Assembly (NCBI GenBank): GCA_963764625.1
Contig: CAVXTH010000002.1
Location: forward strand, 34,554 to 98,553
Source of the DNA: Candidatus Krumholzibacteriota bacterium
Lineage (GTDB): Bacteria; Krumholzibacteriota; Krumholzibacteriia; JAJRXK01
Reading direction: 5' to 3'
DNA length: 64,000 bases
Position numbers and translations under genes: made by a program. The notes beneath the pieces are model-generated. The model did not search any database and was not told where the DNA came from. It was given only the letters and a program-made list of their open reading frames with translations. Position 1 is the first letter of the stretch. Each line of letters starts with the position of its first letter. Of the stretch, positions 9,155 through 63,431 are shown in pieces.

Positions 9155-9242
9155 GAAAACCCCCGTCAGCCGCAATGGCTGGTATGTTGATCGTCGGTCG
9201 AGCGTGCGGCCTCGCTTCTGCCGGGCCCTACTCTCGGAAATG

Positions 9243-9356
9243 TCTGGCGTGAATTCGACCGCCCCATGAAAGGGGCCTGCAAGGAGTCGTCCAGCACCGA
9301 TACTGACCTTACCCCGCTCGAGGGAACCGAGCAAGTCAATACATTTCAATGGCTTA
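9243..9356 (-). other. attI-like module copy B (core mutated)
   Basis: gtgaattcgaccgccccatgaaagggg...gagtcgtccagcacc...agggaaccgagcaagtc...atggctta aligns with copies C, E, F. Confidence 0.6.
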
Positions 9357-9453: not shown

Positions 9454-11094
9454 TTGATCATGAAGACCCCAAAGCGGCTGAGACAACTCTGCGGCTGCCC
9501 CCCCTTGTGCCTCCTGACGCTGCTGGCCGGCCTGGCCCTGCTCGGCCTCGGCTGCAGCAAGAGCGGCCCCACCGATCCCGGCAACACCGACCCGATCGAT
9601 CCCGCCCAGGTCAACGCCTTCGTCAATGACCTCCCCGACTGGGAGGTCCCGTCGACGGTAGAGGATCCCCCCGTCGATTTGCCCGACGAGCAGGACCTCG
9701 AAGACAACCAGTACTACCGCTGCCATCTCGTGCAGTACGACATGAAGCGGAACTTCGACAGCATCGTCGCGGTGGGCGCCAACGCGACCGCGCTCAAACC
9801 CGGCATGATGGTGCAGGGCAACGGAGTGAAGGACGGCTCGCTGTCGACCATCGGCCTGAAGCGCTCGCCGCTGCTATTGTCAGTGAACCTTGCCCTCGAT
9901 ACCCCGTCGCGGCGGGTGGACGTGCCCACCAGCTCGTCGATCCAGGACGCGATCGCGTCGCTGCAGCGCGAGGCGGACACGCGACTAGGCTCGCTTCCGG
10001 TCGTGCCGGCAATGATCAACTTCAAAGTCCAACAGGCCTACTCGTTCAGCCAGGCGATGCTATCGGCAGGGATCAGCCTCAACTATGACGCAGTCTTCGC
10101 GAACGGCTCGGTCAGCTCGACCTTCAACCAGAATAGCTCGGTAAAGTCCCAATCGGTCGTCGTGAAACTGCTGCAGCCGATGTACACGATCTCGTTCGCC
10201 GACGACGAGATGGCCGAGCCAGGAAACTTCTTTGCCGAGGATGTCACCCAGGCCGACTTCGACCGCCAGCGTCAGCTCGGCACGATGGGCCCCGGCAACT
10301 TGCCGTGCTACGTGCAGTCGGTCACCTACGGCCGCATGCTCGTCTACACCATGACCTCGACGGAAGCGACCAGCGCCCAGGAGCTCCAGCTCGCCGTGCA
10401 GGCATCGTACGGCGCCTGGGAGGGCTCAGGCCACGTCGACAGCCAGCAGCAGCAACTCGTGAACAACTCGACCATCCAGGTCCAGGTGTTCGGTGGCACG
10501 CAGGAGGATCAGCTCGACGCGATCAAAACGGCGCTGCACACCGGTGACTTCAGCGCCTTTCTGACGCCGGTGCCAGCAACCACGGCGGTGCCTCTTTCCT
10601 ATCGCATCAACGACTTGAAGAACCGGCAGCCGGCGGTGATCGGCGACGCGACGAAGTTCTCGATTAAAGAGTGCGAAGCCGTCAATGACATGATGTTCAC
10701 CGTATCGCTGGACAGCATCACTGTCGTCGACGGCTGCACGGACCAGACTCTCTTCGACATCGAGAGCTACGTCGACGTCACGGACAACGGCGAGTACTGG
10801 CTGATGCACCGGAGCGGTCCTGCCTTCACGCGCGAGGATCTGTTGAACGCGTACCACCAGGCCATCTTTACGGTGACGGCGAGTGCCAACACGACGATCA
10901 CCTTCACGACGAACTTCAACGGCGCCGGCGGTACGCACGACTACCACTGGTGGTCGAAGGTAACGACCTTCCAGTATCCATTCGACTTCCCATCAAATCC
11001 CCTGCACTTCAGCCATCTCGACACGACGACGAACGATCTGTACGACGGCTGTACGATGGAGATGCACTACACAATCCAGTGGGAATTGCAGTGA
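9454..11094 (+). CDS. Thiol-activated cytolysin (CDC-like) family lipoprotein
   Basis: Lipobox LLGLGC; PGMMVQG, YVQSVTYGRM, VFGG, VPLSY motifs; no ECTGLAWEWWR undecapeptide. Confidence 0.8.
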   Translation: MIMKTPKRLRQLCGCPPLCLLTLLAGLALLGLGCSKSGPTDPGNTDPIDPAQVNAFVNDLPDWEVPSTVEDPPVDLPDEQDLEDNQYYRCHLVQYDMKRNFDSIVAVGANATALKPGMMVQGNGVKDGSLSTIGLKRSPLLLSVNLALDTPSRRVDVPTSSSIQDAIASLQREADTRLGSLPVVPAMINFKVQQAYSFSQAMLSAGISLNYDAVFANGSVSSTFNQNSSVKSQSVVVKLLQPMYTISFADDEMAEPGNFFAEDVTQADFDRQRQLGTMGPGNLPCYVQSVTYGRMLVYTMTSTEATSAQELQLAVQASYGAWEGSGHVDSQQQQLVNNSTIQVQVFGGTQEDQLDAIKTALHTGDFSAFLTPVPATTAVPLSYRINDLKNRQPAVIGDATKFSIKECEAVNDMMFTVSLDSITVVDGCTDQTLFDIESYVDVTDNGEYWLMHRSGPAFTREDLLNAYHQAIFTVTASANTTITFTTNFNGAGGTHDYHWWSKVTTFQYPFDFPSNPLHFSHLDTTTNDLYDGCTMEMHYTIQWELQ

Positions 11095-11236
11095 CCGGAT
11101 CTTGGACGATCGGCGGGCCCGACGGGTCCGGGACGGTCCGCCGCGCGGACGGGGGCGGCCAAGCGTCGCCCCCGCTGCGTAGCCGACCCAATGAAAATAC
11201 TCTAGTATTCCATCTACCCCCTCTGGAAGGTGGACG

Positions 11237-11800
11237 ATGGATCCCGATCGCGCCGAGATCACCTCCCTGCTGTTGGAGCTGTCCGGCAACAACCGCGGGA
11301 CCGTTGACGCCCTCATGCCGCTCGTCTACGACTCTCTCCACGGCATCGCCCGCCGCCAGCTCAGCTTAGAGCGTCGCGACCACACACTGGCGCCAACCGC
11401 ACTGGTCCACGAGGCCTACCTGAAGCTCATCGACCAGGACCGCGTCCGCTGGCAAAACCGGGCCCATTTCTACGCGATCGCCGCGCGCGCCATGCGCCGC
11501 ATCCTCGTCAACCACGCCCGCGACCGCCTCGCGCAGAAGCGCGGCGGTGGCCTGGTCACGGTGACTTTCGACGAGGAGTTGGCCCCCGCCGTTACGGGCC
11601 CCGAGGAGATGCTGGCGCTCGAGGACGCCCTGATTCGCCTGCAGGAGCGCGACCCACGCCGCGCCCAGGTGGTCGAGTGCCGCTTCTTCGGCGGCCTGAC
11701 GCACGAGGAGATCGCAGAGGCACTCGGTGTGTCCGTGCCCACGGTGCAGCGCGACTGGCGCTTCGCCCGAGCCTGGCTCGCTAAGGAGCTGGCCTCGTGA
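11237..11800 (+). CDS. ECF sigma factor, kinase-associated (TIGR02999-like)
   Basis: HTLAPTALVHEAYLKL, HFYAIAARAMRRILVNHAR..KRGG, TVQRDWRFARAWL. Confidence 0.92.
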   Translation: MDPDRAEITSLLLELSGNNRGTVDALMPLVYDSLHGIARRQLSLERRDHTLAPTALVHEAYLKLIDQDRVRWQNRAHFYAIAARAMRRILVNHARDRLAQKRGGGLVTVTFDEELAPAVTGPEEMLALEDALIRLQERDPRRAQVVECRFFGGLTHEEIAEALGVSVPTVQRDWRFARAWLAKELAS

Positions 11801-14800
11801 GCGACTCGCACTGGGATCGTCTCGAGGCGCTGTTCGAAGCCGCCTGTGCTCTACCACCGGGGGAGAGAGACGCATTCCTGGAACGCGAATGTGGCGATGA
11901 CCTCGGCCTGCGCGACGAAGTGCAGTCGCTGCTCGACGCCGACCGGTCGAGTAACCACCTACTGGACGGCAGCGCGCTGGACCTCGCTCCTCCGCTCGCG
12001 GCTCCGCTGACCCCTGGCCGCCAGATCGGTCCCTACCGCGTGACCGCCGAGCTCGGCGAGGGCGGTATGGGAGCGGTATACCTGGCCGAGCGCTGCGACG
12101 GACAGTTCGAGCAGCGCGTGGCGCTGAAGGTCGTCCGTTTCGGCCTGGCGTCTCCCACGCTGGTGCGCCGGTTCGGGGAGGAGCGGCAGATCCTCGCACG
12201 CCTGGAGCATCCCGGCATCGCGCGGCTGCTCGACGGCGGTGTCACCGACGGCGGCCTGCCCTGGTTCAGCATGGAGTACGTCGAGGGCGAGCCGATCGAC
12301 CGCTGGTGCGACCGCCGTGGCCTCGGCGTCCGCACGCGCCTCGAGCTTTTCGCCGCGGTCTGCGACGCTGTCCAATACGCGCAGAACAACCTGGTGGTTC
12401 ACCGCGACCTCAAGCCCAGCAATATCCTGGTGACCGGCGACGGCGCCGTAAAGCTGCTGGATTTCGGCATCGCGAAGCTGGTCGCGACCAACTCCGAGGT
12501 CGATGATCGCGCCCTGCGCACCCTCACGGCTGCTCCGTTGATGACCGCCAGCTACGCGGCGCCCGAGCAGCTGCTCGGTGGGCGCATCACCACCGCCACC
12601 GACGTCTATGCGCTAGGGATGGTGCTCTACGAGCTGCTGGCCGGTGGTCGTGCCTACGAGGTGGCCGGCCTCACCCCGACCCAGCTCGAGCGTACGGTTT
12701 GCGTTGATACCCCGGCGCGGCCAAGCTCCACGGTCCGCGATTCGCGCCGGCGCCGGCACGTGGCCGGCGACCTCGACAACATCTGCCTCAAGGCGCTGGC
12801 CAAGGAACCCGAGCGCCGCTACGCAACCGCCGGCCAGCTCGGCGAGGACATCCGCCTGCACCTGTCCGGCCTGCCGGTACGCGCGCGACCGGCGACCTTC
12901 GGTTATCTCGCTCGCAAGGCGATACGGCGCTACCGTCCCCAGCTTACCGTTGCCGCCGCCGCGCTCGCCGTGTTGATCGTCCTGGGCGCCTGGTTCACGC
13001 ACCGCATCGCGCACGAGCGCGACCTGGCGCGACGCGAGGCCGCGCGCACGACTCAGGTCGCGAAGTTTCTGTCCTCGCTGTTCCGGGTGTCAGACCCCGA
13101 GGAGGCGCGCGGGGAAGACATCAGCGCACGCGAACTGCTCCAGCGTGGCGCCGCCCGGGTAGGCACCGAGCTGGCGGGGCAGCCGGACTTGCAGGCCACG
13201 ATGGACGGCGTCCTGGGCAACGTTTACCTGAATCTGGGCCTGCACGAGGAGTCCGACAGCTTGCTCACCCGCGCCGTGGCGTTGAATCAGAAGCTGAACG
13301 TGCGTGACGGACCGGAGTACGCCGAGCAGCTCGCGAACTTGGGCCAACTCCGCGTGGAGCAAGGACGGTATGCGGACGCCGACTCCGTGCTGACGGCGGC
13401 TCTGACCATCCAGCGGCGTGATCGCCGGCTCGAGGACACGCGCATCGCCGCGACGATGGTCTCGCTCGGGCACGTCATGGACTTGACGGGGGATTACGCG
13501 CGCGCGGAGACGCTCTACCGCGAGGCCATCGCCGTCTGCAAGGCGTCGCCGAAGCCCGACGAGCTCCGGCTCTCGACCGCCATGGGCGCGTTGGCGCTGG
13601 AACTCTTGGATCGCGACCAGCTGGACGAATCCGAGAATCTGTTCCGCGAGACTCTGGCGCTGCAGCGTCGCACTCTCGGCGAAGACCACCCCGAGGTCGC
13701 CACCACCCTGTTCAACCTCGGGTTGTTGCTGAGTAACCGCGGCGACTTCGCCGGTGCGGAGAAAATCCAGCGTGAGACCATGGCGCTGGACCGTAAGCTC
13801 TACGGCGAGGAACATCCCAACGTCGCCTATGATCTGAACAATCTCGCGTTCCTCGAGCGGCAGAAAGGCAATTTCGCGGAGGCCGAATCGGTGGCGCGCC
13901 AGGCCTTGGCGATGCGGCGCAAGCTTCTAGGTGACGACCATCCTCAAACGATCGAGACCGAGGCAAACCTCGCGCAGATCCTCCAGTCTCGAGGCGAGTA
14001 CGCCGCGGCTACCCAGCTGGCCCACAAAGTGCTGGACGCGAAGACCCGCATCTATGGCAGCGACAGTCCGGCTCTGTGCGCCGCCATGAACCAATTCGGC
14101 TGGTTCCTCTACGACCTGGGACGGTTCGCTGAGGCAGACTCACTCCACCGTCGTTCACTCGCGCTCGGCATCGAGAAGCTGGGAGCAGACCACAAGTCCG
14201 TCGCGATCAGCCGCCTGCAGCTCGCGCGCGACCTCGTTGCCGAGCACCAGCTGGCTGCGGCCGATAGCGTTCTGCAACCGGGCCTGGCGGCGGCCCGCCG
14301 TCTTTACGGAGACAGCAACATCTTTACCGCCGCCTTCCACATGGAGGAGGGAAGGATTCGTCTCGAGCAGGGACGCCTTAGCGCCGCGCTGACCGAAACC
14401 CGCACCGCGATGGCAGTCGCGGACAGCAGGGAGAAGGGCAGCCCTCGCCGCGCGGGGGCTCTGCTGCTGACGGCGGAAATCCAGCACGAGCAGGGGCACG
14501 CCGCCTCCGCCGATAGCCTCTACCGCGAAGCGACGCGGATCCGCGAACTCACCGTTCCCGCCAGCCATCCGGAGGCGGCGTGGATCAGGCTACGCCACGG
14601 AGCACTGCAGCTCGAGCAAGGCAAGGTCGCGACGGCTCGCACCCTGATCGTACCGGCAGCGGAGGCGCTGGCGAAGGCGCTGCCGCCCGATCACTGGCGG
14701 GTCGCTTACGCCCGGACCCTGGCGGCCGCCTGCCACCTGGACACGCGCGAACCCGGGGCCCGAGCGGAACTCGTCTCGGGGCGTGCGCGGGTCGCGGCGG

Positions 14801-14853
14801 ACCTGGGAGCTGACAATCGCCTGGTGAAGGCGCTTGCCCGGATTTCCGATTAG
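11797..14853 (+). CDS. Membrane Ser/Thr protein kinase with TPR repeats
   Basis: GEGGMGAVY, VALK, HRDLKPSN, DFG, APE; TM; LGEDHP-type TPRs; 4-nt overlap with the ECF gene. Confidence 0.95.
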   Translation: MSDSHWDRLEALFEAACALPPGERDAFLERECGDDLGLRDEVQSLLDADRSSNHLLDGSALDLAPPLAAPLTPGRQIGPYRVTAELGEGGMGAVYLAERCDGQFEQRVALKVVRFGLASPTLVRRFGEERQILARLEHPGIARLLDGGVTDGGLPWFSMEYVEGEPIDRWCDRRGLGVRTRLELFAAVCDAVQYAQNNLVVHRDLKPSNILVTGDGAVKLLDFGIAKLVATNSEVDDRALRTLTAAPLMTASYAAPEQLLGGRITTATDVYALGMVLYELLAGGRAYEVAGLTPTQLERTVCVDTPARPSSTVRDSRRRRHVAGDLDNICLKALAKEPERRYATAGQLGEDIRLHLSGLPVRARPATFGYLARKAIRRYRPQLTVAAAALAVLIVLGAWFTHRIAHERDLARREAARTTQVAKFLSSLFRVSDPEEARGEDISARELLQRGAARVGTELAGQPDLQATMDGVLGNVYLNLGLHEESDSLLTRAVALNQKLNVRDGPEYAEQLANLGQLRVEQGRYADADSVLTAALTIQRRDRRLEDTRIAATMVSLGHVMDLTGDYARAETLYREAIAVCKASPKPDELRLSTAMGALALELLDRDQLDESENLFRETLALQRRTLGEDHPEVATTLFNLGLLLSNRGDFAGAEKIQRETMALDRKLYGEEHPNVAYDLNNLAFLERQKGNFAEAESVARQALAMRRKLLGDDHPQTIETEANLAQILQSRGEYAAATQLAHKVLDAKTRIYGSDSPALCAAMNQFGWFLYDLGRFAEADSLHRRSLALGIEKLGADHKSVAISRLQLARDLVAEHQLAAADSVLQPGLAAARRLYGDSNIFTAAFHMEEGRIRLEQGRLSAALTETRTAMAVADSREKGSPRRAGALLLTAEIQHEQGHAASADSLYREATRIRELTVPASHPEAAWIRLRHGALQLEQGKVATARTLIVPAAEALAKALPPDHWRVAYARTLAAACHLDTREPGARAELVSGRARVAADLGADNRLVKALARISD

Positions 14854-21266: not shown

Positions 21267-21506
21267 ATCACGCTCGCTCCGACAGAAGAAGAAGGAGGGA
21301 GGATCGCGGGCATCGCATCGAGGACGACCGTCTTCGAATGCTAACATCGACCTTCTAGTCGCACAAGGGCGGGGTGACGACAACTGGCGCGGTACCGGAG
21401 GTTGCCGGGCGCGCTGCAGACCGTCGAGTCGCCCGACACTCCGTGCCACCGGCACGTTGTCGTGCTCATCCTCGCTTCCGCAGACGAAGAGGGCCGGCAC
21501 CGTGGA

Positions 21507-21654
21507 GTGAGCCCGCGATCAAGTCCATGGGTGTAGATCATGGTCGTCTTCACACTCGAATGACCAAGAGCTCCTGGACGATGCGAATGTTGGCGCCATC
21601 CTCCAGCAGGTGTGTGGCGAAGCTGTGGCGGAAAGTGTGGCAGCTGGCGCGCTT
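21507..21654 (-). pseudogene. intI: intI 3' stub, copy 1
   Basis: [29 protein letters not shown](L)[19 protein letters not shown] with a 1-nt deletion. Confidence 0.9.
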
Positions 21655-22112
21655 CGAATTGAGAGTCCAGAGGCCGATTTCTCATTCTTCCTCTTGCACC
21701 AAACGTATATTTGTATAACTTGAAGTTGCCTCCCCGATTACTCAGGGCTTTCCGTTCCACCGAGCGCGTTGAGCAGGGCTGCTCAGTGCGAGCGGGCCTG
21801 CACCTGCTCACAAGCTTGGGAGAGGTTTCGTGAGCCAGAGAAGGCTGAATCCCTGGGAAGAAACGACAATTTAAAGCAAATCCCACGCGTCCGCTGGCCG
21901 TGAGGGGGAACCCTATGCGCTGCGGACCCGGCTGGAAGGGCATGGAACTAGCCGGGCAGCAAAGCGCAGATTTGGTGAATAAACATGAAAACTCAGATAC
22001 GAGGAAGTCTCAGAGGAATGTCAACCAACTCCGAACGTCGAGACACTTTGGAACGGGCACGGACCAACCCCGAACCGGCAACCACGACCTCCTCTCAAGG
22101 ACCATGACCTGA
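21655..22112 (+). repeat. Conserved intI-upstream module, copy 1
   Basis: Aligns along its length with 41943-42443 and 63540-64000. Confidence 0.9.
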
Positions 22113-35779: not shown

Positions 35780-35837
35780 ACCCCACGCCAGCGCTCACCT
35801 GTGGCTGGAAGCCGTCAGGTGCAGCACTTGGTTATGC
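35780..35837 (-). repeat. attC of SET cassette copy 1 (core AAC to CAC)
   Basis: Otherwise identical to 38681-38738. Confidence 0.75.
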
Positions 35838-36338
35838 GCTTTCGGCAACGAATCGGTCCTGGATGTAACGCGAGAAGTAGCCAGCATAGCGCTGTTGCAG
35901 CTCTAGTAGGCGCCAGTCATCCCCCGTGATAATTTTTCGGCACTCCGGTGCGCCGCAGACGCAGGCCATGCGCTCATCTGGATTCCCGTCGATCATGGCG
36001 TAGTCGATCGTCAACTCGGCACCCGCTGGAATATCCCCCATGGCGACGAACGTGATCTGCCCCCGCACCCCGACGTTCGGGTGGCAGGAGTGGTTGAGGC
36101 ACAGGATGTTGACTTCAACCTCCTCGACGCTGGCTGGCACGATATAGAGACTATCCTCGATCTGAATCTCTGCAGGCGACACCGCCTCGCGGACCTGCGC
36201 AAAAGCGGCAGTGTCCATGATGGTTCCCCCCTTGACGGCGACGATTTCGCCCGAAGAGATCGCCTCACGCGCGAAGAGCCCACGACCTTGGATGGGACTG
36301 ACACGTTTCCCGGTTTTGGGATTGAACCAACTACTCAT
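35832..36338 (-). CDS. SET domain protein with post-SET motif, copy 1
   Basis: GRGLFA, NHSCHPN, ELTIDY, CVCGAPECR. Confidence 0.9.
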   Translation of the reverse strand: MSSWFNPKTGKRVSPIQGRGLFAREAISSGEIVAVKGGTIMDTAAFAQVREAVSPAEIQIEDSLYIVPASVEEVEVNILCLNHSCHPNVGVRGQITFVAMGDIPAGAELTIDYAMIDGNPDERMACVCGAPECRKIITGDDWRLLELQQRYAGYFSRYIQDRFVAESA

Positions 36339-38680: not shown

Positions 38681-38738
38681 GCCTAACGCCAGCGCTCACC
38701 TGTGGCTGGAAGCCGTCAGGTGCAGCACTTGGTTATGC
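38681..38738 (-). repeat. attC
   Basis: gcctAAC..gctcacctg...caggtgcagc..GTTatgc. Confidence 0.88.
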
Positions 38739-39239
38739 GCTTTCGGCAACGAATCGGTCCTGGATGTAACGCGAGAAGTAGCCAGCATAGCGCTGTTGCA
38801 GCTCTAGTAGGCGCCAGTCATCCCTCGTGATAATTTTTCGGCACTCCGGTGCGCCGCAGACGCAGGCCATGCGCTCATCTGGATTCCCGTCGATCATGGC
38901 GTAGTCGATCGTCAACTCGGCACCCGCTGGAATATCCCCCATGGCGACGAACGTGATCTGCCCCCGCACCCCGACGTTCGGGTGGCAGGAGTGGTTGAGA
39001 CACAGGATGTTGACTTCAACCTCCTCGACGCTGGCTGGCACGATATAGAGACTATCCTCGATCTGAATCTCTGCAGGCGACACCGCCTCGCGGACCTGCG
39101 CAAAAGCGGCAGTGTCCATGATGGTTCCCCCCTTGACGGCGACGATTTCGCCCGAAGAGATCGCCTCACGCGCGAAGAGCCCACGACCTTGGATGGGACT
39201 GACACGTTTCCCGGTTTTGGGATTGAACCAACTACTCAT
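38733..39239 (-). CDS. SET domain protein, copy 2
   Basis: Near-identical to 35832-36338. Confidence 0.9.
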   Translation of the reverse strand: MSSWFNPKTGKRVSPIQGRGLFAREAISSGEIVAVKGGTIMDTAAFAQVREAVSPAEIQIEDSLYIVPASVEEVEVNILCLNHSCHPNVGVRGQITFVAMGDIPAGAELTIDYAMIDGNPDERMACVCGAPECRKIITRDDWRLLELQQRYAGYFSRYIQDRFVAESA

Positions 39240-41467: not shown

Positions 41468-41585
41468 GATTACCTCCGCGGTGATTATCGTGTACGGACG
41501 CGGGCACGACGGTGCCATCGTAGAACTCCAGCCACGCTTCGTTGATGTTCCGCTCAAGATACACCTATCTGCTGCTATCGCAGGC

Positions 41586-41745
41586 GCCTAACTTGAATTC
41601 TACGGCCCCGTGTAAGGGGCCCACTACGAGTTATCCAGTACTGGTAATAATCCTACGTCTCCCCAGGGAACCGAGCAAGTCCGTGGTCACCATGGGCTTA
41701 CCGCCCGTGGATCTCGATCTTATCCCGCACATTCATACCCATCTA
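41586..41745 (-). other. attI-like module copy C
   Basis: gcctAACttgaattctacggccccgtgtaaggggcccactacgagttatccagtactggtaa almost identical to 62259 onward. Confidence 0.88.
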
Positions 41746-41763
41746 CGGAGCCAAAAACCTCCC

Positions 41764-41942
41764 TCACCGAAGCCGATCCACGGGACTCTTCACCGTCAGT
41801 CCCCGGTTCAGCACGTGCGTGTAGATCTTGGTCGTCTTCACACTCGGATGACCCAGGAGCTCCTCGATGGTGCGGATGTCAGAGCCATCTCAAGCAAGTG
41901 CGTCGCAGGGCTGTGGCAGAAGCTGTGGCAACTGGCGTGCTT
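41764..41942 (-). pseudogene. intI: intI 3' stub, copy 2
   Basis: [56 protein letters not shown]; catalytic R lost, 1-nt deletion. Confidence 0.9.
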
Positions 41943-42443
41943 CGAATTGCTAGTCCAGAGGCCGATTTTTCATTTCTCTATTGCACCAAATGTATATTTG
42001 TATATACTAAAAATGCCTCCCCAAAAACCTAGGGTTTCCCGTTCCACCGAGCGCTTTGAGCAGGGCTGCTCGGTGCGAGCTGGCCTGCATCTGCTCACGA
42101 GCTTGGGCGAGCTTTCGTGAGCCAGAGAAAGCTGAATCCTTAGAGAAGAGTGACAATTCGAGGCAAGAACCACTCGGCTGCTGGCCGCGAGAGGGAATCC
42201 TATGCGCCGCGCACCCGGTTGCAAGGGCATGGGACCAGCCGAGCGCCAGCGCGAGGATTAGGTGAATAGACATGAAAACTCAGATACGAGGAAGTCTGAG
42301 AGAAATATCCACCAACTCCGAACGTCGAGACACTCCGGTCGAAGGTGGCGACTCCGAACGTCGAGACACTTTGGAACGGGCACGGACCAACTCCGAACTG
42401 AAACCGCCCCAACCACGACCTCCCCGCAAGAACCATGACCTGA
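41943..42443 (+). repeat. Conserved intI-upstream module, copy 2
   Basis: Aligns with 21655-22112 and 63540-64000. Confidence 0.9.
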
Positions 42444-51240: not shown

Positions 51241-51257
51241 GGTTTCCTCCTGAGACC

Positions 51258-51350
51258 TGCCTTGAATTCCACGGCCCCGTGCAAGGGGTTCACTACGAGT
51301 CATCCAGCGCCGGAAAGGATCCTTCGCCTCTCCAGGAGTCCGAGCAAGAC
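51258..51350 (-). other. attI-like module copy D (TAAC core deleted)
   Basis: gcc-ttgaattccacggccccgtgcaagggg..cactacgagtcatccag...gatccttcgcctctccagg...cgagcaag. Confidence 0.75.
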
Positions 51351-51463
51351 TGTGGCTCTTACGGCTCCATCCGATTGGCGTAGCGGGAAACACGTACGCG
51401 ATCACGCTGCTGCTCCGAATCATTTCACTTTTTGCGCAAGAAGGACGATTCCGTTGGACGCCT

Positions 51464-53675: not shown

Positions 53676-53759
53676 TTGTTCCTCCTGGGCAAGAAAGACG
53701 TCTGCCAAAGGGCGATAGGACGACGCACGTCGGGCCGAGCCCACCAAGAGTGTATAGCA

Positions 53760-53924
53760 GCCTAACGTAAATTCTACGGCCCCGCGTAAGGGGTCCGACT
53801 ACGAGTTATCCAGACCTGGTAATGATCCTACGCCTCCCCAGGGCACTGAACAAGCCCATGATCGCCAAGGGCTTATGGGGTGTAGATTTCGCTATTATCA
53901 CGCGCACCCTGACCCATCCAAGTG
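53760..53924 (-). other. attI-like module copy E with putative cassette promoter
   Basis: gcctAACgtaaattctacggccc...actacgagttatccag...tattatcacgc...acccatccaagtg; TTGGAT-16-GATAAT on minus strand. Confidence 0.85.
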
Positions 53925-58256: not shown

Positions 58257-58358
58257 GGCTAACGCCCGCGTATCAGCCGCGGGCGCCAGCCTGGCACGCC
58301 AGGTGCGACCGCAGCTGGCGTGACAGGCAAGCTCGTCGGCTGCATACGCTAGTTAGGG
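58257..58358 (-). repeat. attC
   Basis: ggctAAC..gcgtatcagccg...cggctgcatacgc..GTTaggg. Confidence 0.92.
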
Positions 58359-58402
58359 CCTGCGCAATCACCGCCCCTTGATAGCTGCACTGCCGGCGCG
58401 AG

Positions 58403-59080
58403 TCAGTGGCCATAGCGTCTGCTCCTGCCCCTGAAGCTGGCAAGAGCGTCCTCGCAATCAGCTCTGGTCAAGTCGTTGATGAACTTGTCGAAAAACTGGA
58501 GCTCGGCGTAGCCAGCCTGAAGCGGCAGGAAGTTGCTGATGCGACGCTCGCCGGACGTGCGAAGAACAAGATCCACAGGTTCCGGAACCCAGAGCCGCGA
58601 CAGCAGCCCATCAACTCCCTGCCGCGCAGCGGTCAGAAGCTCGTCAATAGGGCTATACCCTGCCAGCAGGTATAGCCGCCTCTCCTCATTAGATGGGAGC
58701 GCTTGCAGCTCACGGATGGCAGCAAGGTAGTCACGAGGAAGCAAGTCTGCATCCCCGGCCAGACGGACCTCACAGCGCCATTTCGCAACGAGGTCTCTCA
58801 GTAGCGTTCTGAAGAACTCAGTCTCTCCGTGAGACGCGGCCTCGAAGTCCGAAGGAGGACGAGACAGGTTCTCTTTGCTGAGCATGTAGATACTGAGAGC
58901 ATCTGCTCCGTTCTCATAGAAGAAGTCGACAAACGCGGCGACACTGGGAATGGCCGCGAGGTAGGCCTCCGCAAGCGGAACGCCATTCGACCGCGCCCAA
59001 CGCCTCACGCCATCACCTATTAAGCCCACATGGAAACCGCTGCCCTCGGTGGGGCTGTCAAGCGTCCGCAGATCCAACAC
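58403..59080 (-). CDS. Divergent cis-prenyltransferase (UppS-fold) protein
   Basis: HVGLIGDGVRRWA, LSKENLSR, DLVLRTSGERRISNFLP, RSRRYG; GTG start with GAGGAGG RBS. Confidence 0.88.
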   Translation of the reverse strand: MLDLRTLDSPTEGSGFHVGLIGDGVRRWARSNGVPLAEAYLAAIPSVAAFVDFFYENGADALSIYMLSKENLSRPPSDFEAASHGETEFFRTLLRDLVAKWRCEVRLAGDADLLPRDYLAAIRELQALPSNEERRLYLLAGYSPIDELLTAARQGVDGLLSRLWVPEPVDLVLRTSGERRISNFLPLQAGYAELQFFDKFINDLTRADCEDALASFRGRSRRYGH

Positions 59081-59699
59081 CGGATTCCTCCTCGTCTTCG
59101 TCCTCGAGCGCTGAGTGAGACTGCAAGACCCATACGATTAGCAGAAGGAGTGTCACCGCCATCAGGCTGAGCGAGACCCACAGGGCACCACGTTCCCATC
59201 CCAAGATTTCGTCGTCGCCCGACGGTTTCAGCTGAAGGAACAGGACGATACTTACGACGCTCAGGATGAAGGGAATCGCGTACCTGACGAAGGCCAGAGA
59301 GCGATAGAGGATAGCTCTCCATTTCCCGATTGTAAGGTGGCTTCGATAGAGGAATCGATCCCAGGTCCAAACAGAGTCACGCGGTTCCAGTCCTATCAGT
59401 GTGTTCACGCGAGGCCGAAGGACAGTGAATATGTAGACGGCTGCCGTGTAGACGATCACGTCGTGCCGGAGAATCAGCCATATGACAATGCAGTACATGA
59501 GAGGGAATGCCAGCAGCACGGCAGCCGCAGCGGGTTGAGAGACGCTGACGCCAAACGCCGTGAGCATTGCTCCTGCCAGAATCACAGAGAGGTGGGTGAG
59601 CTGCTCCTGCCTAGCTACACGCGCCTTGATCTCGTCTCGCAGGTCCCTGTACTCATCTCGGATCGCCTCCAGCTCTGCCCGGACCCGATCTGCACTCAC
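59058..59699 (-). CDS. Four-TM membrane protein with EYxxLRxEI N-terminal helix
   Basis: GTG start with GGAGGAGG RBS; four hydrophobic helices; 23-nt overlap with the next gene. Confidence 0.8.
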   Translation of the reverse strand: MSADRVRAELEAIRDEYRDLRDEIKARVARQEQLTHLSVILAGAMLTAFGVSVSQPAAAAVLLAFPLMYCIVIWLILRHDVIVYTAAVYIFTVLRPRVNTLIGLEPRDSVWTWDRFLYRSHLTIGKWRAILYRSLAFVRYAIPFILSVVSIVLFLQLKPSGDDEILGWERGALWVSLSLMAVTLLLLIVWVLQSHSALEDEDEEESGVGSADA

Positions 59700-59760
59700 T
59701 GGGCAACACCTCCTCCAGGAGTCCGGCGGGGAATGATGTTCGTGTCGTGATTGCGCATGG

Positions 59761-59845
59761 CCCTAACGTCGGCCATGACGCGCGAGGAATGGCGCAGAGC
59801 GAAGCGGCGCGCTATTCCTCGTCGCTGTCGATGGCTTTGTTGGCC
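59761..59845 (-). repeat. attC
   Basis: ccctAAC..gccatgac..cgaggaat...attcctcg..gtcgatggc..GTTggcc. Confidence 0.88.
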
Positions 59846-60696
59846 ACCTCTTTCTGCTCGAGTTCTTTGAGTGTGGTTCCTTTTGAGTTCTTCCACGAGA
59901 TCAGTCCGTTCGCGTGGCCACCGTGGACGACCGAGGCGGCAGCGCTCGGGCTCGTGAACTCGTAGTCCTTGGCGAACGCGAGCCGATCACTCTGTTCGGT
60001 CAGAACCCCCTCGGACAGAAGCTGCGAACGTACGGTTGATGGGTAGGGGTACTTCTTGACGGAAGGACGTTCCTCCAGCACGGCTTCTGATCCCTTTAGG
60101 ACGAGAAAACCGTTCTCTGTTTGCCGCCCCGTGGCCTTGACCTTCTTGATCGTGCAAGTCAGGAGCTCGGAAGCCTTCACGGGCACGGTTGCTTTCACAA
60201 CAGGCTTGAGGAAGTCCTGCCCAAGAACGGGCAGGAGTTGCTCAACCTTTGCCAGGAAGACGTCCATATCGGCGGTGTCAGACTCTGGCAGGTGGGAGCC
60301 ACTCGCGTTGGTGTTCTCCAACTCAAATCGGTCTGCTGCTTTCGTCATCTCGATTAGCTTACCCTCAAGATACTTGATGTGAGCCTTGGTCAGGTTCTCG
60401 TCCTTGCTCACAAAGAAGATCACGGTCTTCCAGAAGTCTCGGTCGAGGTGCCCCTTCAATCTTGTCCGAACTACCTCCGCTTCCCCGACGTAGACTCTCG
60501 GTTTTCCCGTCTCGGAGTTGATCCCGGTAAGGAAGTAGATCCCCGGTTTCTTCGCTTCGTCGCGCTGAAGAACCAATTCAAGCTGGGACCGGGGGCCAGC
60601 CACAGCCTTACCCGTCCAGTTAGATATTTCCGCGGTCCGGACGGAGGCCGGATCACCTTCTGCAAGGAATATTTTTACGGTGGCTGTCTCTTTCAT
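59812..60696 (-). CDS. GIY-YIG nuclease with C-terminal DUF4357-like domain
   Basis: GIYFL..VYVGEA..RLKGH, KYLE; FTSPSAAASVVHG..NGLISWK. Confidence 0.85.
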   Translation of the reverse strand: MKETATVKIFLAEGDPASVRTAEISNWTGKAVAGPRSQLELVLQRDEAKKPGIYFLTGINSETGKPRVYVGEAEVVRTRLKGHLDRDFWKTVIFFVSKDENLTKAHIKYLEGKLIEMTKAADRFELENTNASGSHLPESDTADMDVFLAKVEQLLPVLGQDFLKPVVKATVPVKASELLTCTIKKVKATGRQTENGFLVLKGSEAVLEERPSVKKYPYPSTVRSQLLSEGVLTEQSDRLAFAKDYEFTSPSAAASVVHGGHANGLISWKNSKGTTLKELEQKEVANKAIDSDEE

Positions 60697-60706
60697 ATCT
60701 CTCCTT

Positions 60707-60766
60707 GGCCAACGTCCTGCCGTTCAGCCGGCGGCGGAGCCGGTCGGCTGCAACGGCTTGTTAGCA
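60707..60766 (-). repeat. attC (VOC cassette copy 1)
   Basis: ggccAAC..gccgttcagccg...cggctgcaacggc..GTTagca. Confidence 0.92.
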
Positions 60767-60806
60767 GGCCTTGCCTGCGTGTTGTTTTGGTAAACGAGAT
60801 AGTGCA

Positions 60807-61196
60807 TCACGTAAGCCCCGTCATTGTGGCGAACACAAGCACGTGTCCGTCTAGGTCCGTACTGTACGCCGCCTGGTCTCCCCAGTCCCGCGTGGCGAGA
60901 GGACTAAGTTCTGTGGCCCCCTGCTCCAAGGCTCGCTGGTGGAATGATTCGGGGTCGTCCACGGAAAGGTATATCTCCGCGCGAGGCACCCCCTTGGCAT
61001 CGTCCGGATCAGGGAGCTTCGTGCCCAGGAGGCGTCGGATGCCAGCCACCGGCATAAGCCCCAATACAGTTCCTTCGTTCAGCTTGAACTCTGTCATGCC
61101 GGGTACGTTCAGCGAGGGCCGCATCATCAACACCGCTTCATAGAAACGCGCGCTTGCTTCCTGATCAGAAACGAAAAGGATGATGTTCGCTCTCAT
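60807..61196 (-). CDS. VOC/glyoxalase family protein, intact copy
   Basis: FYEAVL..LNVPGMTEF, RDWGDQAAYSTDLDGHVLVF. Confidence 0.9.
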   Translation of the reverse strand: MRANIILFVSDQEASARFYEAVLMMRPSLNVPGMTEFKLNEGTVLGLMPVAGIRRLLGTKLPDPDDAKGVPRAEIYLSVDDPESFHQRALEQGATELSPLATRDWGDQAAYSTDLDGHVLVFATMTGLT

Positions 61197-61211: not shown

Positions 61212-61271
61212 TGCTAACGTCCTGCCGTTCAGCCGGCGGCGGAGCCGGTCGGCTGCAACGGCTTGTTAGCA
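61212..61271 (-). repeat. attC (VOC cassette copy 2)
   Basis: Identical interior to 60707-60766. Confidence 0.92.
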
Positions 61272-61311
61272 GGCCTTGCCTGCGTGTTGTTTTGGTAAAC
61301 GAGATAGTGCA

Positions 61312-61700
61312 TCACGTAAGCCCCGTCATTGTGGCGAACACAAGCACGTGTCCGTCTAGGTCCGTACTGTACGCCGCCTGGTCTCCCCAGTCCCGCGTGG
61401 CGAGAGGACTAAGTTCTGTGGCCCCCTGCTCCAAGGCTCGCTGGTGGAATGATTCGGGGTCGTCCACGGAAAGGTATATCTCCGCGCGAGGCACCCCCTT
61501 GGCATCGTCCGGATCAGGGAGCTTCGTGCCCAGGAGGCGTCGGATGCCAGCCACCGGCATAAGCCCCAATACAGTTCCTTCGTTCAGCTTGAACTTGTCA
61601 TGCCGGGTACGTTCAGCGAGGGCCGCATCATCAACACCGCTTCATAGAAACGCGCGCTTGCTTCCTGATCAGAAACGAAAAGGATGATGTTCGCTCTCAT
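61312..61700 (-). pseudogene. VOC cassette copy 2, 1-nt deletion near 61596
   Basis: gaacttgtcatg versus gaactctgtcatg in copy 1. Confidence 0.8.
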
Positions 61701-62243: not shown

Positions 62244-62258
62244 CTGCCGCCTTCGTCC

Positions 62259-62423
62259 TGCTAACTTGAATTCTACGGCCCCATGTAAGGAGCCCACTAC
62301 GAGTTATCCAGTACTGGTAACGATCCTACGCCTCACCAGGGGAGCCGGGCAAGCCCATGGTCGCCAAGGGCTTGTTACGCGCTGATTTCGATATTATCAC
62401 GCATACCGTCACCCATCTAAGTG
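62259..62423 (-). other. attI (copy F) with putative Pc, downstream of intI
   Basis: Minus strand gtagaattcaaG/TTAGCA at the first cassette boundary; no attC-like palindrome; TTAGAT-16-GATAAT at 62420-62393. Confidence 0.85.
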
Positions 62424-62438
62424 GACCGCAATCCCCCT

Positions 62439-63431
62439 TCAACGCAGCCGATCCGCTGGACTCTTGACCGTGAGACCGCGATTGAGCACGTGGGTATAGA
62501 TCATGGTAGTCTTCACACTCGAGTGACCCAGGAGCTCCTGAACAGTGCGAATGTCGGCGCCGTCCTCCAGCAGGTGTGTCGCGAAGCTGTGGCGGAAGGT
62601 GTGGCAGCTGGCGCGCTTGGAGATTCCAGCGCGCAGAACGGCCATCCGGACCGCCCTTTGGACAGCGCTCTCGTGCAGGTGATGGCGGCGCAGTTGCCTT
62701 GATTCACGATGGCTATAGCGGCGCGTTGCGGGAAACACCCATTGCCAGGGCCACTCCCGTCCCGCATGGGGATACTTTCGCCCAAGCTATCGGGAAGCTC
62801 GACCCAACCGGCTCCCTCGCGTAGATCCTGACGATGGAGCTTCCAGGCGGAGCGCAGATGGTCCCTCAAAGGGTCGACCAGCCGCTCCGGCAACACGGTC
62901 ACGCGGTCCTTGCCACCCTTGCCCTGGCGGACGGTGAGGATGCGTCGTTCGAAGTCCAGGTCCTTCGTCCGAAGCCGACACGCTTCCAGCAGACGCAGCC
63001 CACTGCCGTAGAGCAGCATCCCAATGAGTCGATAGGGACCGGCCAGCTGATCCAAGACAGCTTCCACTTCCCTGCGGTCGAGCACGACCGGAAGACGGCG
63101 ATGGATCCGGGCCCGGGTGATCTTGTCAAGCCACGGGAGCTCCACTCCGTAGAACTTCCCGATACAGGAACAGCAAGGCGGCCATGGCTTGGTTCTGGGT
63201 GGACGCGCTCACTCGTAAATCGGTGGCGAGCCAGCTCAAGAAGCCCTCCACCTCCTCGCGCCCCATTTCGCGGGGATGGCGACCGGCGTGGTAGCGCACG
63301 TAGCGGCGCGTCCAGTTCAGATACGCCGAGCGCGTCCGCGGACTGTAGCGACGGGAGCAGAGGATTTGTTCGAATGTGGCGAGGAGGCCGGGGCGACCTT
63401 GGGATGATCGCGGCGATCGATCTTCGGACAT
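62439..63431 (-). CDS. intI: Integron integrase, +1 frameshift near 63151 and -1 near 62783
   Basis: [29 protein letters not shown], IntI-specific [48 protein letters not shown]. Confidence 0.95.

Follow-up and report, generated by a model that had tools for sequence, protein, structure and literature searches.

An integron cassette that pairs an accessory cis-prenyltransferase with a four-helix membrane protein: a possible isoprenoid-lipid or glycan-carrier module

Using a 64,000-nucleotide (nt) stretch of contig CAVXTH010000002.1 from a Candidatus Krumholzibacteriota bacterium (this whole stretch is called the window here), we analyzed an integron cassette at 58263-59766 on the minus strand that is filled by two intact genes, one encoding a membrane protein and the other encoding a cis-prenyltransferase. 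The cassette most likely changes the lipid or sugar-carrier chemistry of the cell envelope, and it is probably not an alarm system for phage defence. A more specific reading, to which we give about an even chance, is that a chromosomal integron carries, in this cassette, an accessory module for isoprenoid lipids or glycan carriers. According to this reading, a homodimer-type cis-prenyltransferase that is not the host UppS would condense an allylic diphosphate with a diphosphate-bearing acceptor, isopentenyl diphosphate (IPP) or dimethylallyl diphosphate (DMAPP), to make a non-housekeeping prenyl or polyprenyl diphosphate. The membrane protein, made from the same message and probably coupled in translation, would offer a conserved cytoplasmic helical face and would either keep the enzyme at the membrane or receive the lipid that it makes, through docking, hand-off or translocation. 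In this way, the host's machinery for envelope glycoconjugates would be supplied with a private lipid carrier or anchor. The observations that support this reading are the extra enzyme copy in the genome, the kept catalytic and acceptor residues, the gene partners of the enzyme clade, the fusions found in the membrane-protein family and the overlap of the two genes; from these observations, we infer the identity of the product, a contact of the two proteins with each other and a physiological role. If the reading is true, integrons would move a private-lipid-carrier module that could re-route envelope glycan synthesis, and their cargo goes beyond single resistance or defence genes.

The boundaries of the cassette are defined by two attC sites. 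The cassette's own, downstream site (58257..58356, minus strand; core-pattern match 58259-58356) has the R' core GTTAGCC at 58257-58263, which is the cassette end, and there we found the inverted repeats I1 and I7; its L'' arm is one base longer than L'. The upstream site (59761..59845, minus strand; core-pattern match 59763-59843) has the R' core GTTAGGG at 59761-59767, which forms the start of the cassette. This upstream site belongs to the preceding cassette, which encodes a candidate defence protein, PDC-S14, and it overlaps the stop codon of the open reading frame (ORF) at 59812-60696. Both sites have CTAAC...GTTRG cores with, on the coding strand, an extra base in the 5' arm and, as single-stranded DNA, form long hairpins that are imperfect and bulge at single bases (z = -6.03 for the downstream and -4.63 for the upstream site; none of 200 shuffles of either folds equally well). 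An integron cassette is thus delimited here by attC bounds with inverse cores and a bulged hairpin, in the same orientation as the ORFs. Across the window, attC-type cores with a spacer of 45-75 nt were matched 14 times compared to 2.32 expected, and those with a spacer of 76-105 nt were matched 13 times compared to 2.19 expected; no shuffle among 100 reached 14 or 13, respectively. The window represents an extensive array in which the genes are short and mostly on the minus strand, as in chromosomal integron cassettes, and includes genes for methyltransferases, SnoaL, glyoxalase (glyoxalase/bleomycin-type), GNAT and beta-lactamase-fold proteins, among others. The end of the contig is the end of the window.

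The membrane-protein gene (59058..59699, minus strand; ORF of 213 amino acids (aa), GTG start) comes first in the cassette and is preceded by the ribosome-binding site (RBS) GGAGGAGG (59709..59716, minus strand), 9 nt before the GTG. The accessory cis-prenyltransferase gene (58403..59080, minus strand; ORF of 225 aa, GTG start, PF01255) has the RBS GGAGGA (59086..59091, minus strand), 5 nt before its GTG. The two genes share 23 nt, which leaves no space for an attC between them. A preliminary description, made from the letters of the window, had presented a two-gene cassette between intact attC sites, with overlapping genes, strong RBSs and no internal attC, and all of these features hold. The GGAGGA of the enzyme gene sits within the 3' end of the membrane-protein gene, in the codons of its acidic tail; this location inside the upstream gene suggests that the enzyme gene is translationally coupled to the membrane-protein gene. 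No sigma-70-like promoter was found inside the cassette.

The enzyme matches the Pfam family PF01255 with 120.3 bits (E 1.1e-34, cut-off 27), residues 21-224 being aligned to profile positions 1-219. As had been described, it contains the motifs SKEN (68-71), RTSGERRISNF (174-184) and RRYG (221-224), and has DGVRRW (23-28) in place of DGNxRW. In the alignment with the undecaprenyl diphosphate synthase (UPPS) of Escherichia coli, D23 corresponds to D26, R27 to R30, and S68 and N71 to S71 and N74. On the acceptor side, R174, E178, R180 and S182 correspond to R194, E198, R200 and S202, and E193 corresponds to E213; the C-terminal RXG motif is kept as R222-Y-G224. The catalytic Asp, the Ser/Asn pair, the Arg/Arg/Ser site for the acceptor diphosphate and the RXG motif are therefore all found in the enzyme by sequence alignment (roles of residues other than the Asn/Thr pair and RXG are used here as general background). 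According to the available portion of one report, RXG is conserved in homodimer-type enzymes and touches ligands bound at the active site, and the conserved Asn and Thr/Ser act in proton elimination (PMC8131916). Since the enzyme retains the two elements that bind a diphosphate-bearing acceptor, the RXG motif and the Arg/Ser site, the use of an adenosine-type acceptor is argued against; most likely, the acceptor still bears a diphosphate, as IPP or DMAPP.

Three places are altered compared to E. coli UPPS: N28 is replaced by V25, H43 by Y40, and L206-W207 by P186-L187. In addition, a single internal deletion makes the enzyme about 15 residues shorter. Its score against TIGR00055, the UppS equivalog model, is 95.1 bits and falls below the cut-off of 109.55; in a comparison with all 16 NCBIfam isoprenyl-transferase models, it remained far under every cut-off. 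The host genome also has a canonical UppS on another contig (C6:142190-142852), which scores 273.8 bits compared to 118.6 bits for the cassette enzyme. The marks of a housekeeping UppS, that is, Asn28, His43 and the status of a sole genome copy, are thus replaced by V25, Y40 and a second copy, and the suggestion that the enzyme is divergent and non-housekeeping was borne out. Homologues encoded by plasmids are at best 35% identical to it.

These data bear on the view that the enzyme is a plain second undecaprenyl diphosphate synthase, which would enlarge the carrier pool or, as a target bypass, withstand a natural UppS inhibitor and so confer tolerance to antibiotics directed at the lipid-carrier cycle, the membrane protein being an anchor or unrelated. 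The fold family, the 84 bits to the E. coli structure 1jp3, the catalytic Asp, Arg30, Ser71/Asn74, Arg194/Arg200/Ser202 and RXG all liken the enzyme to UppS/IspU, and every element for regular IPP condensation is present. Integron cassettes commonly carry resistance-type single functions, and the array does have beta-lactamase-fold, glyoxalase/bleomycin-type and GNAT cassettes. Conversely, the enzyme differs from UppS in being a second, shorter copy under the equivalog cut-off, with Val for Asn28, Tyr for His43 and Pro-Leu for Leu206-Trp207; the Asn28 and His43 replacements extend throughout its clade, which is tied to dedicated glycosyltransferase partners and is not stand-alone (see below). 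The gene overlap, the internal RBS and the recurring partner also argue that the membrane protein matters. We therefore consider plain carrier supply unlikely.

The best sequence match in the PDB is cyclolavandulyl diphosphate synthase (CLDS; 5gul, 5ygj and 5guk) with 85.4 bits, compared to 84 bits for E. coli UPPS (1jp3). At the three altered places, CLDS has Met, Tyr and Pro-Leu. A residue other than Asn at UPPS position 28 is characteristic of head-to-middle enzymes, and is Val in the cassette enzyme and Met in CLDS; in LPPS, the position is occupied by His78, which is essential for head-to-middle coupling, as stated in the accessible part of the source (PMC7839719). The donor site of the cassette enzyme, judged by its aligned residues, resembles that of an irregular synthase. 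Because this site is altered, chain length or regiochemistry probably differs from that of undecaprenyl diphosphate.

A different outcome suggested by the same residues is irregular terpenoid synthesis: a head-to-middle synthase of the cyclolavandulyl-, lavandulyl- or isosesquilavandulyl-diphosphate type would make a short branched or cyclic product, which the membrane protein would export, cyclise or transfer. The enzyme shares with CLDS the non-Asn residue at 28, the Tyr for His43 and the PL for LW in FLLWQ; the apparent likeness to the head-to-middle enzymes, including LPPS and Mcl22, extends to the F-x-P-L motif and the compact size. Moreover, a Streptomyces plasmid homologue, with DGMRRW and an aromatic prenyltransferase gene beside it, is CLDS-like and joins the base of the enzyme's clade. 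However, the margin of CLDS over UPPS is just 1.4 bits, and the Streptomyces sequence is joined with a support (SH-aLRT) of 89 on a 1.5-long branch, in a tree that holds no solved irregular synthase. The identity of the cassette enzyme to this group, measured to the Streptomyces plasmid homologue, is about 34%, and the enzyme is located in an integron with a membrane protein and not in a meroterpenoid cluster. A cyclase, an aromatic prenyltransferase and a P450 are all absent from the cassette, and the partners in the sister clade are carrier-lipid enzymes and not terpenoid-tailoring enzymes. Irregular synthesis is, in our estimate, quite unlikely. It should be noted that the loss of Asn28 and His43, which is shared with an irregular synthase, means that the enzyme may make something other than a carrier lipid; this weighs against the carrier-module reading that we prefer.

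The relatives of the enzyme were collected in three ways. A word-indexed protein search returned 27 representatives (210-235 aa, 117-499 bits; canonical UppS scored at most 108 bits); DGxRRW (x = V, A, S, T, N, C or I) is found in all 27 and FLPLQ in 25 of them. A pattern scan of species-representative genomes gave 140 pattern matches and 90 relatives, and a scan of metagenomes gave at least 594 pattern matches and at least 517 relatives; 80 loci were fetched from each. No enzyme of these 160 loci is more than 46% identical to the cassette enzyme, and the eight nearest relatives (52-61%) lie outside this set. In a quick maximum-likelihood tree of 144 rows, which was restricted to enzymes of 190-300 aa and had no duplicates and no loci under 150 bits, the cassette enzyme falls in an accessory clade of 100 rows (SH-aLRT 99) that contains a subclade of 46 rows (support 96). 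The window enzyme and P0005-P0012 form a 9-row clade (support 95). Asn28 and His43 of UPPS are replaced across the accessory clade, and DGVRRW is constant through an 11-row clade. Three out of four other genomes with a member of the accessory clade have a canonical UppS alongside it.

The gene partners of the accessory clade point to carrier-lipid chemistry. An orthologous GT2 glycosyltransferase of about 280 aa is encoded within 1.5 kb of the enzyme in 27 rows of the 46-row clade; all seven of its PDB sequence matches are polyprenyl-phosphate glycosyltransferases (DPM synthase, ArnC, GtrB; best E 6.6e-8). Other genes that adjoin the accessory enzyme encode Bac_transf phosphoglycosyl transferases (loci L096 and L106), GT1/GT4 enzymes (L086, L003, L004, L023 and L101), UbiA (L085) and, in Bacteroidales loci, acyltransferase_3. 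The preliminary description had offered membrane modification or lipid-carrier supply as the alternative to a defence function; with relatives in operons with polyprenyl-phosphate-type glycosyltransferases and phosphoglycosyl transferases, it is this alternative that fits better. No attC-like cores were found beside L083-L086, the nearest fetched relatives. An accessory clade of cis-prenyltransferases whose donor site is CLDS-like was not found described in our literature searches; this clade, with its conserved glycosyltransferase partners, is a result that is independent of how the cassette is read. As a separate observation, a protein of 322-337 aa with no Pfam match is encoded directly upstream of the accessory prenyltransferase in five loci of a Clostridia-type subclade (L038 354-1328, L045 4934-5947, L049 2186-3154, L050 527-1516 and L059 4049-5017).

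The membrane protein has no sequence match in Pfam, PADLOC, NCBIfam or the PDB. A word-indexed search returned only two relatives, with 48-49% identity, and a full HMMER pass over 1.84 billion representatives detected 429 relatives at E<=1e-3, including 36 at E<=1e-10. A pattern scan of genome contigs gave 174 pattern matches and no confirmed relative, and tblastn against plasmids gave no match. In an alignment of 50 sequences, E16 and Y89 are invariant, and Y17 (46 of 50), W113 (44), E23 (41), R27 (40), P66 (40) and the motif L94-R95-P96 (36-40) are well kept. The EYxxLRxEI helix noticed earlier is thus real and is a hallmark of the family. The acidic tail noticed with it is present in the cassette protein and is not shared by the two close homologues. 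An AlphaFold2 model based on the 50-sequence alignment (pLDDT 91.2, pTM 0.85), which superseded a first model from a 3-sequence alignment (pLDDT 58.6), has helices at 3-54, 56-102, 112-122, 126-157, 167-192 and 196-206. Together with hydropathy, it backs the four transmembrane segments that had been assigned: the modelled protein is a four-helix membrane bundle, and its first two helices are predicted to project from the membrane over a long distance. According to the positive-inside rule, this helix extension and all conserved polar residues are predicted to face the cytoplasm; E16, Y17, E23, R27, Y89, R95 and W113 are all on predicted cytoplasmic helices.

Comparisons of the model returned no known fold. 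A Foldseek search of the PDB gave nothing at E<=0.001, and a wide VIA-align comparison gave generic helical bundles only, with the best Z at 11.4, when about 13 is needed for helical proteins. The 50 aligned members have no Pfam, PADLOC or NCBIfam family in common. Identities as a PAP2/UppP phosphatase, GtrA, SLATT or holin protein were considered and rejected, there being no profile matches; in the case of PAP2, inspection by eye also revealed none of the generally known motifs. A family of 429 representatives with a confident model and with neither annotation nor known fold is, again, independent of the proposed function.

Three longer, distant members of the family with intact hallmark motifs are fusions: P0223 is fused to GT87, P0271 to a GT28/MGDG-synthase-like domain and P0219 to a methyltransferase. 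We examined seven genomic contexts besides the window, with neighbours annotated in four. The membrane-family gene is 12 nt upstream of a GT87 gene in L174 (6421-8559), where a serine recombinase is also in the region; it is 30 nt upstream of a GH13 sucrose-phosphorylase-like gene in L184, just upstream of a GH15-like gene in L185, and in L165 it is flanked by a gene for a DEAD-box helicase and a convergent one of the alpha-amylase family. The theme in the company of the family is sugar and lipid-linked enzymes, in a loose association. The family is sparse: it was found in 2 of 208 genomes of the window's phylum (the window's own included), in 1 of 401 genomes of the phylum of L006, and in 5 of 401 genomes of the phylum of L003. 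There is a slim chance that the family represents a new handler, translocase or hand-off protein for fresh polyprenyl diphosphate; if so, it would bear on how the carrier lipid made in the cytoplasm reaches the periplasm-facing phosphatases.

The layout recalls the surface-glycan modules of the Gtr/Arn type, which consist of a small protein with four transmembrane segments, a polyprenyl-phosphate GT2 and a GT-C enzyme. By analogy, the cassette may likewise be a mobile module that acts on polyprenyl-linked sugars with a small four-helix membrane protein; the GT2s of the sister clade have only DPM synthase, ArnC and GtrB as relatives in the PDB, and members of the membrane family occur fused to GT87 or next to a GT87 gene. 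Unlike these modules, the cassette contains no glycosyltransferase, and our comparisons of sequence and fold found no similarity between the membrane protein and GtrA or ArnE/F.

That missing glycosyltransferase is one of several points that count against a lipid- or glycan-carrier module. Direct evidence for the pairing of the two genes comes from the window only and is thin. No membrane-family gene was found as a neighbour in any of the 160 fetched enzyme loci. Neither a cis-prenyltransferase nor the GT2 family was found near the membrane-family gene in any of the seven other contexts, and these contexts are mixed, with GH13 and GH15-like enzymes and a DEAD-box helicase. In the five Chloroflexota-sample genomes with a membrane-family gene (the phylum of L003), no GT87 or GT2 is located on the contig of that gene.

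The pairing may nevertheless extend beyond the window. The source contigs of the two close membrane homologues and of the enzyme homologues P0006 and P0012 have identical sizes, 5187 nt (NCBI) and 3308 nt (Logan), which gives the matched pairs P0003 and P0006 (5187 nt) and P0002 and P0012 (3308 nt); P0006 and P0012 belong to the 9-row clade of the window enzyme. From the equal contig sizes and sources, the pairing appears to recur in these two closest homologue pairs. The expectation that homologues of the two genes co-occur appears to hold for the two closest pairs, and no co-occurrence was found in the 160 fetched enzyme loci. For the other six members of the 9-row clade, no membrane partner turned up in searches that covered proteins of 105-483 aa. 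In length, the source contigs of ten other representatives of the membrane family agree with none of the enzyme contigs; a further word-indexed search for the family, in which 8000 candidates were scored, returned four proteins; and a profile comparison of the family to the small neighbours of the enzyme in L087, L049 and L020 gave probabilities of at most 2%.

These findings also bear on whether the two genes act together at all. They could be unrelated genes that the loss of an attC merged into one cassette, or the cassette could be a silent passenger within a large array, as the lack of an internal promoter, a nearby integrase gene that is split in two frames, and the many membrane-family genes elsewhere (most of them) without a prenyltransferase would allow. 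Such an explanation has to account for two intact frames with strong RBSs and a 23-nt overlap, for a pair that appears to recur with 46-59% identity on two other contigs, and for the DGVRRW kept in the 11-row clade; we regard it as most improbable.

The preliminary description had favoured a defence or signalling system in which an enzyme acts through a transmembrane effector, as in CBASS or Pycsar. In the novelty check proposed there (DefenseFinder/PADLOC), PADLOC was run: in PADLOC-DB v2, no family matched either cassette protein at E<=0.01. Among the 50 membrane-family members, 47 had no PADLOC match at that cut-off, two had weak matches to PDC-M50A (best 2.7e-5) and one had a weak match to a 2TM effector (0.0024). 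The cassette shares with CBASS, Pycsar and Thoeris the combination of an enzyme and a multi-helix membrane protein in two genes, and a PDC-S14 cassette is found next door. It differs from them in an enzyme class that is unrelated to known signal generators, in having no PADLOC match, and in having no recognised sensor or ligand-binding domain. The CBASS/Pycsar-like reading thus received no direct support, and elsewhere the membrane family is joined to or found beside sugar and lipid enzymes, and not defence genes.

The genomic surroundings were considered in the same context. The cassette just upstream (59812-60696, minus strand) encodes a DUF4357 protein of 294 aa that is the PADLOC candidate PDC-S14 (E 2.1e-105). 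In a scan of 34 accessory-clade loci with 140 neighbour proteins, defence-type genes were located within three genes of the enzyme in 10 loci; this count has no control rate, and it is therefore a lead and not an enrichment. On the earlier question of whether the genes lie in defence islands, the PDC-S14 neighbour and these 10 loci are indirect hints. In L117, a TIR effector gene (E 2.9e-39) overlaps the enzyme gene by 8 nt; in L100, a CHAT/NB-ARC STAND gene is followed by a GT2 gene and then by the enzyme gene. SIR2_2 proteins are encoded in L020 and L101, and a weak one (22.8 bits, under the cut-off) in L087. L052 has Gabija and AbiQ, L032 has AbiEii, L090 has an OLD/AriA-like ATPase, L049 has a ThsB-type TIR, and L006 has both TIR and NB-ARC.

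As an observation in its own right, tight operons recur in which an accessory cis-prenyltransferase gene, usually with a polyprenyl-phosphate-type GT2 or a GT1, is combined with a SIR2_2-like, TIR or CHAT-STAND gene (L020 1562-5465, L087 5073-9406, L100 1402-6651, L101 1675-5502 and L117 4734-7691). The operons with TIR/SIR2/STAND, GT2 and cis-prenyltransferase genes may represent an undescribed conflict-system module and are a testable lead for work on phage defence. Integron arrays are reported to carry defence cassettes in a preprint seen here in part (bioRxiv 10.1101/2024.07.02.601686), in whose available text the string 'prenyl' occurs 0 times. The available portion of a paper on conflict systems (eLife, PMC7159879) mentions glycosyltransferase effectors and not prenyl enzymes. 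Literature searches, supplements aside, found no published account of a cis-prenyltransferase that is part of a defence system or of an integron cassette.

A two-gene anti-phage system could act in two ways: upon infection, an isoprenoid product of the enzyme, or the depletion of one, would lead to permeabilisation of the membrane by the membrane protein, or the cell surface would be remodelled against adsorption. The adjacent PDC-S14 cassette, the reported integron arrays with defence cassettes and the 10 of 34 loci with defence-type genes are in line with such a system. On the other side, neither protein has a PADLOC match, and matches in the membrane family are restricted to three weak ones; the enzyme has no sensor domain; the fusions of the membrane family to glycosyltransferases and a methyltransferase are unlike a suicide effector; the neighbour count comes without a control rate; and the integron preprint, in the part considered, is silent on prenyl enzymes. 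We consider such a system very unlikely. An equally doubtful variant sees in the cassette the minimal form of a class of conflict systems, so far undescribed, that is built on an accessory cis-prenyltransferase; there, infection would cause an isoprenoid lipid to be made or consumed, and this lipid, by way of the four-helix membrane protein, would kill or re-coat the cell, a mechanism whose chances we also rate as low.

The remaining observations concern the array and the rest of the window. A tyrosine-recombinase gene in two frames (62513-63431, minus strand, the same strand as the cassettes) is located four to five cassettes upstream of the cassette studied here; its parts are a Phage_int_SAM_4 domain (63126-63431) and a partial catalytic Phage_integrase domain (62513-63145). 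Integrase-related DNA with 69-84% identity was also found at about 21300-22000 and 41500-42300 (repeat families D1, D11, D16 and D20), which points to several degenerate copies of the integrase or to stacked arrays. A repeated element, about 100-170 nt long (families D2, D9, D12 and D15), is present at up to six places (823-875, 9234-9342, 41578-41749, 51247-51355, 53752-53924 and 62251-62423); two of its copies adjoin the integrase-like remnants, and it has no Rfam match. An Rfam scan of the whole window returned zero families. Two exact duplications of at least 300 nt were detected: 60708-61007 is identical to 61213-61512 (a glyoxalase cassette and, in tandem, a truncated copy of it), and 35785-36084 is identical to 38686-38985 (a SET-domain cassette). 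In a region outside the cassette pattern (9454-14853, plus strand), an ORF of 546 aa has a thiol-activated-cytolysin-family domain (E 3.7e-27); after it come a gene for an ECF sigma factor and then one for a 1018-aa Ser/Thr kinase-TPR protein.

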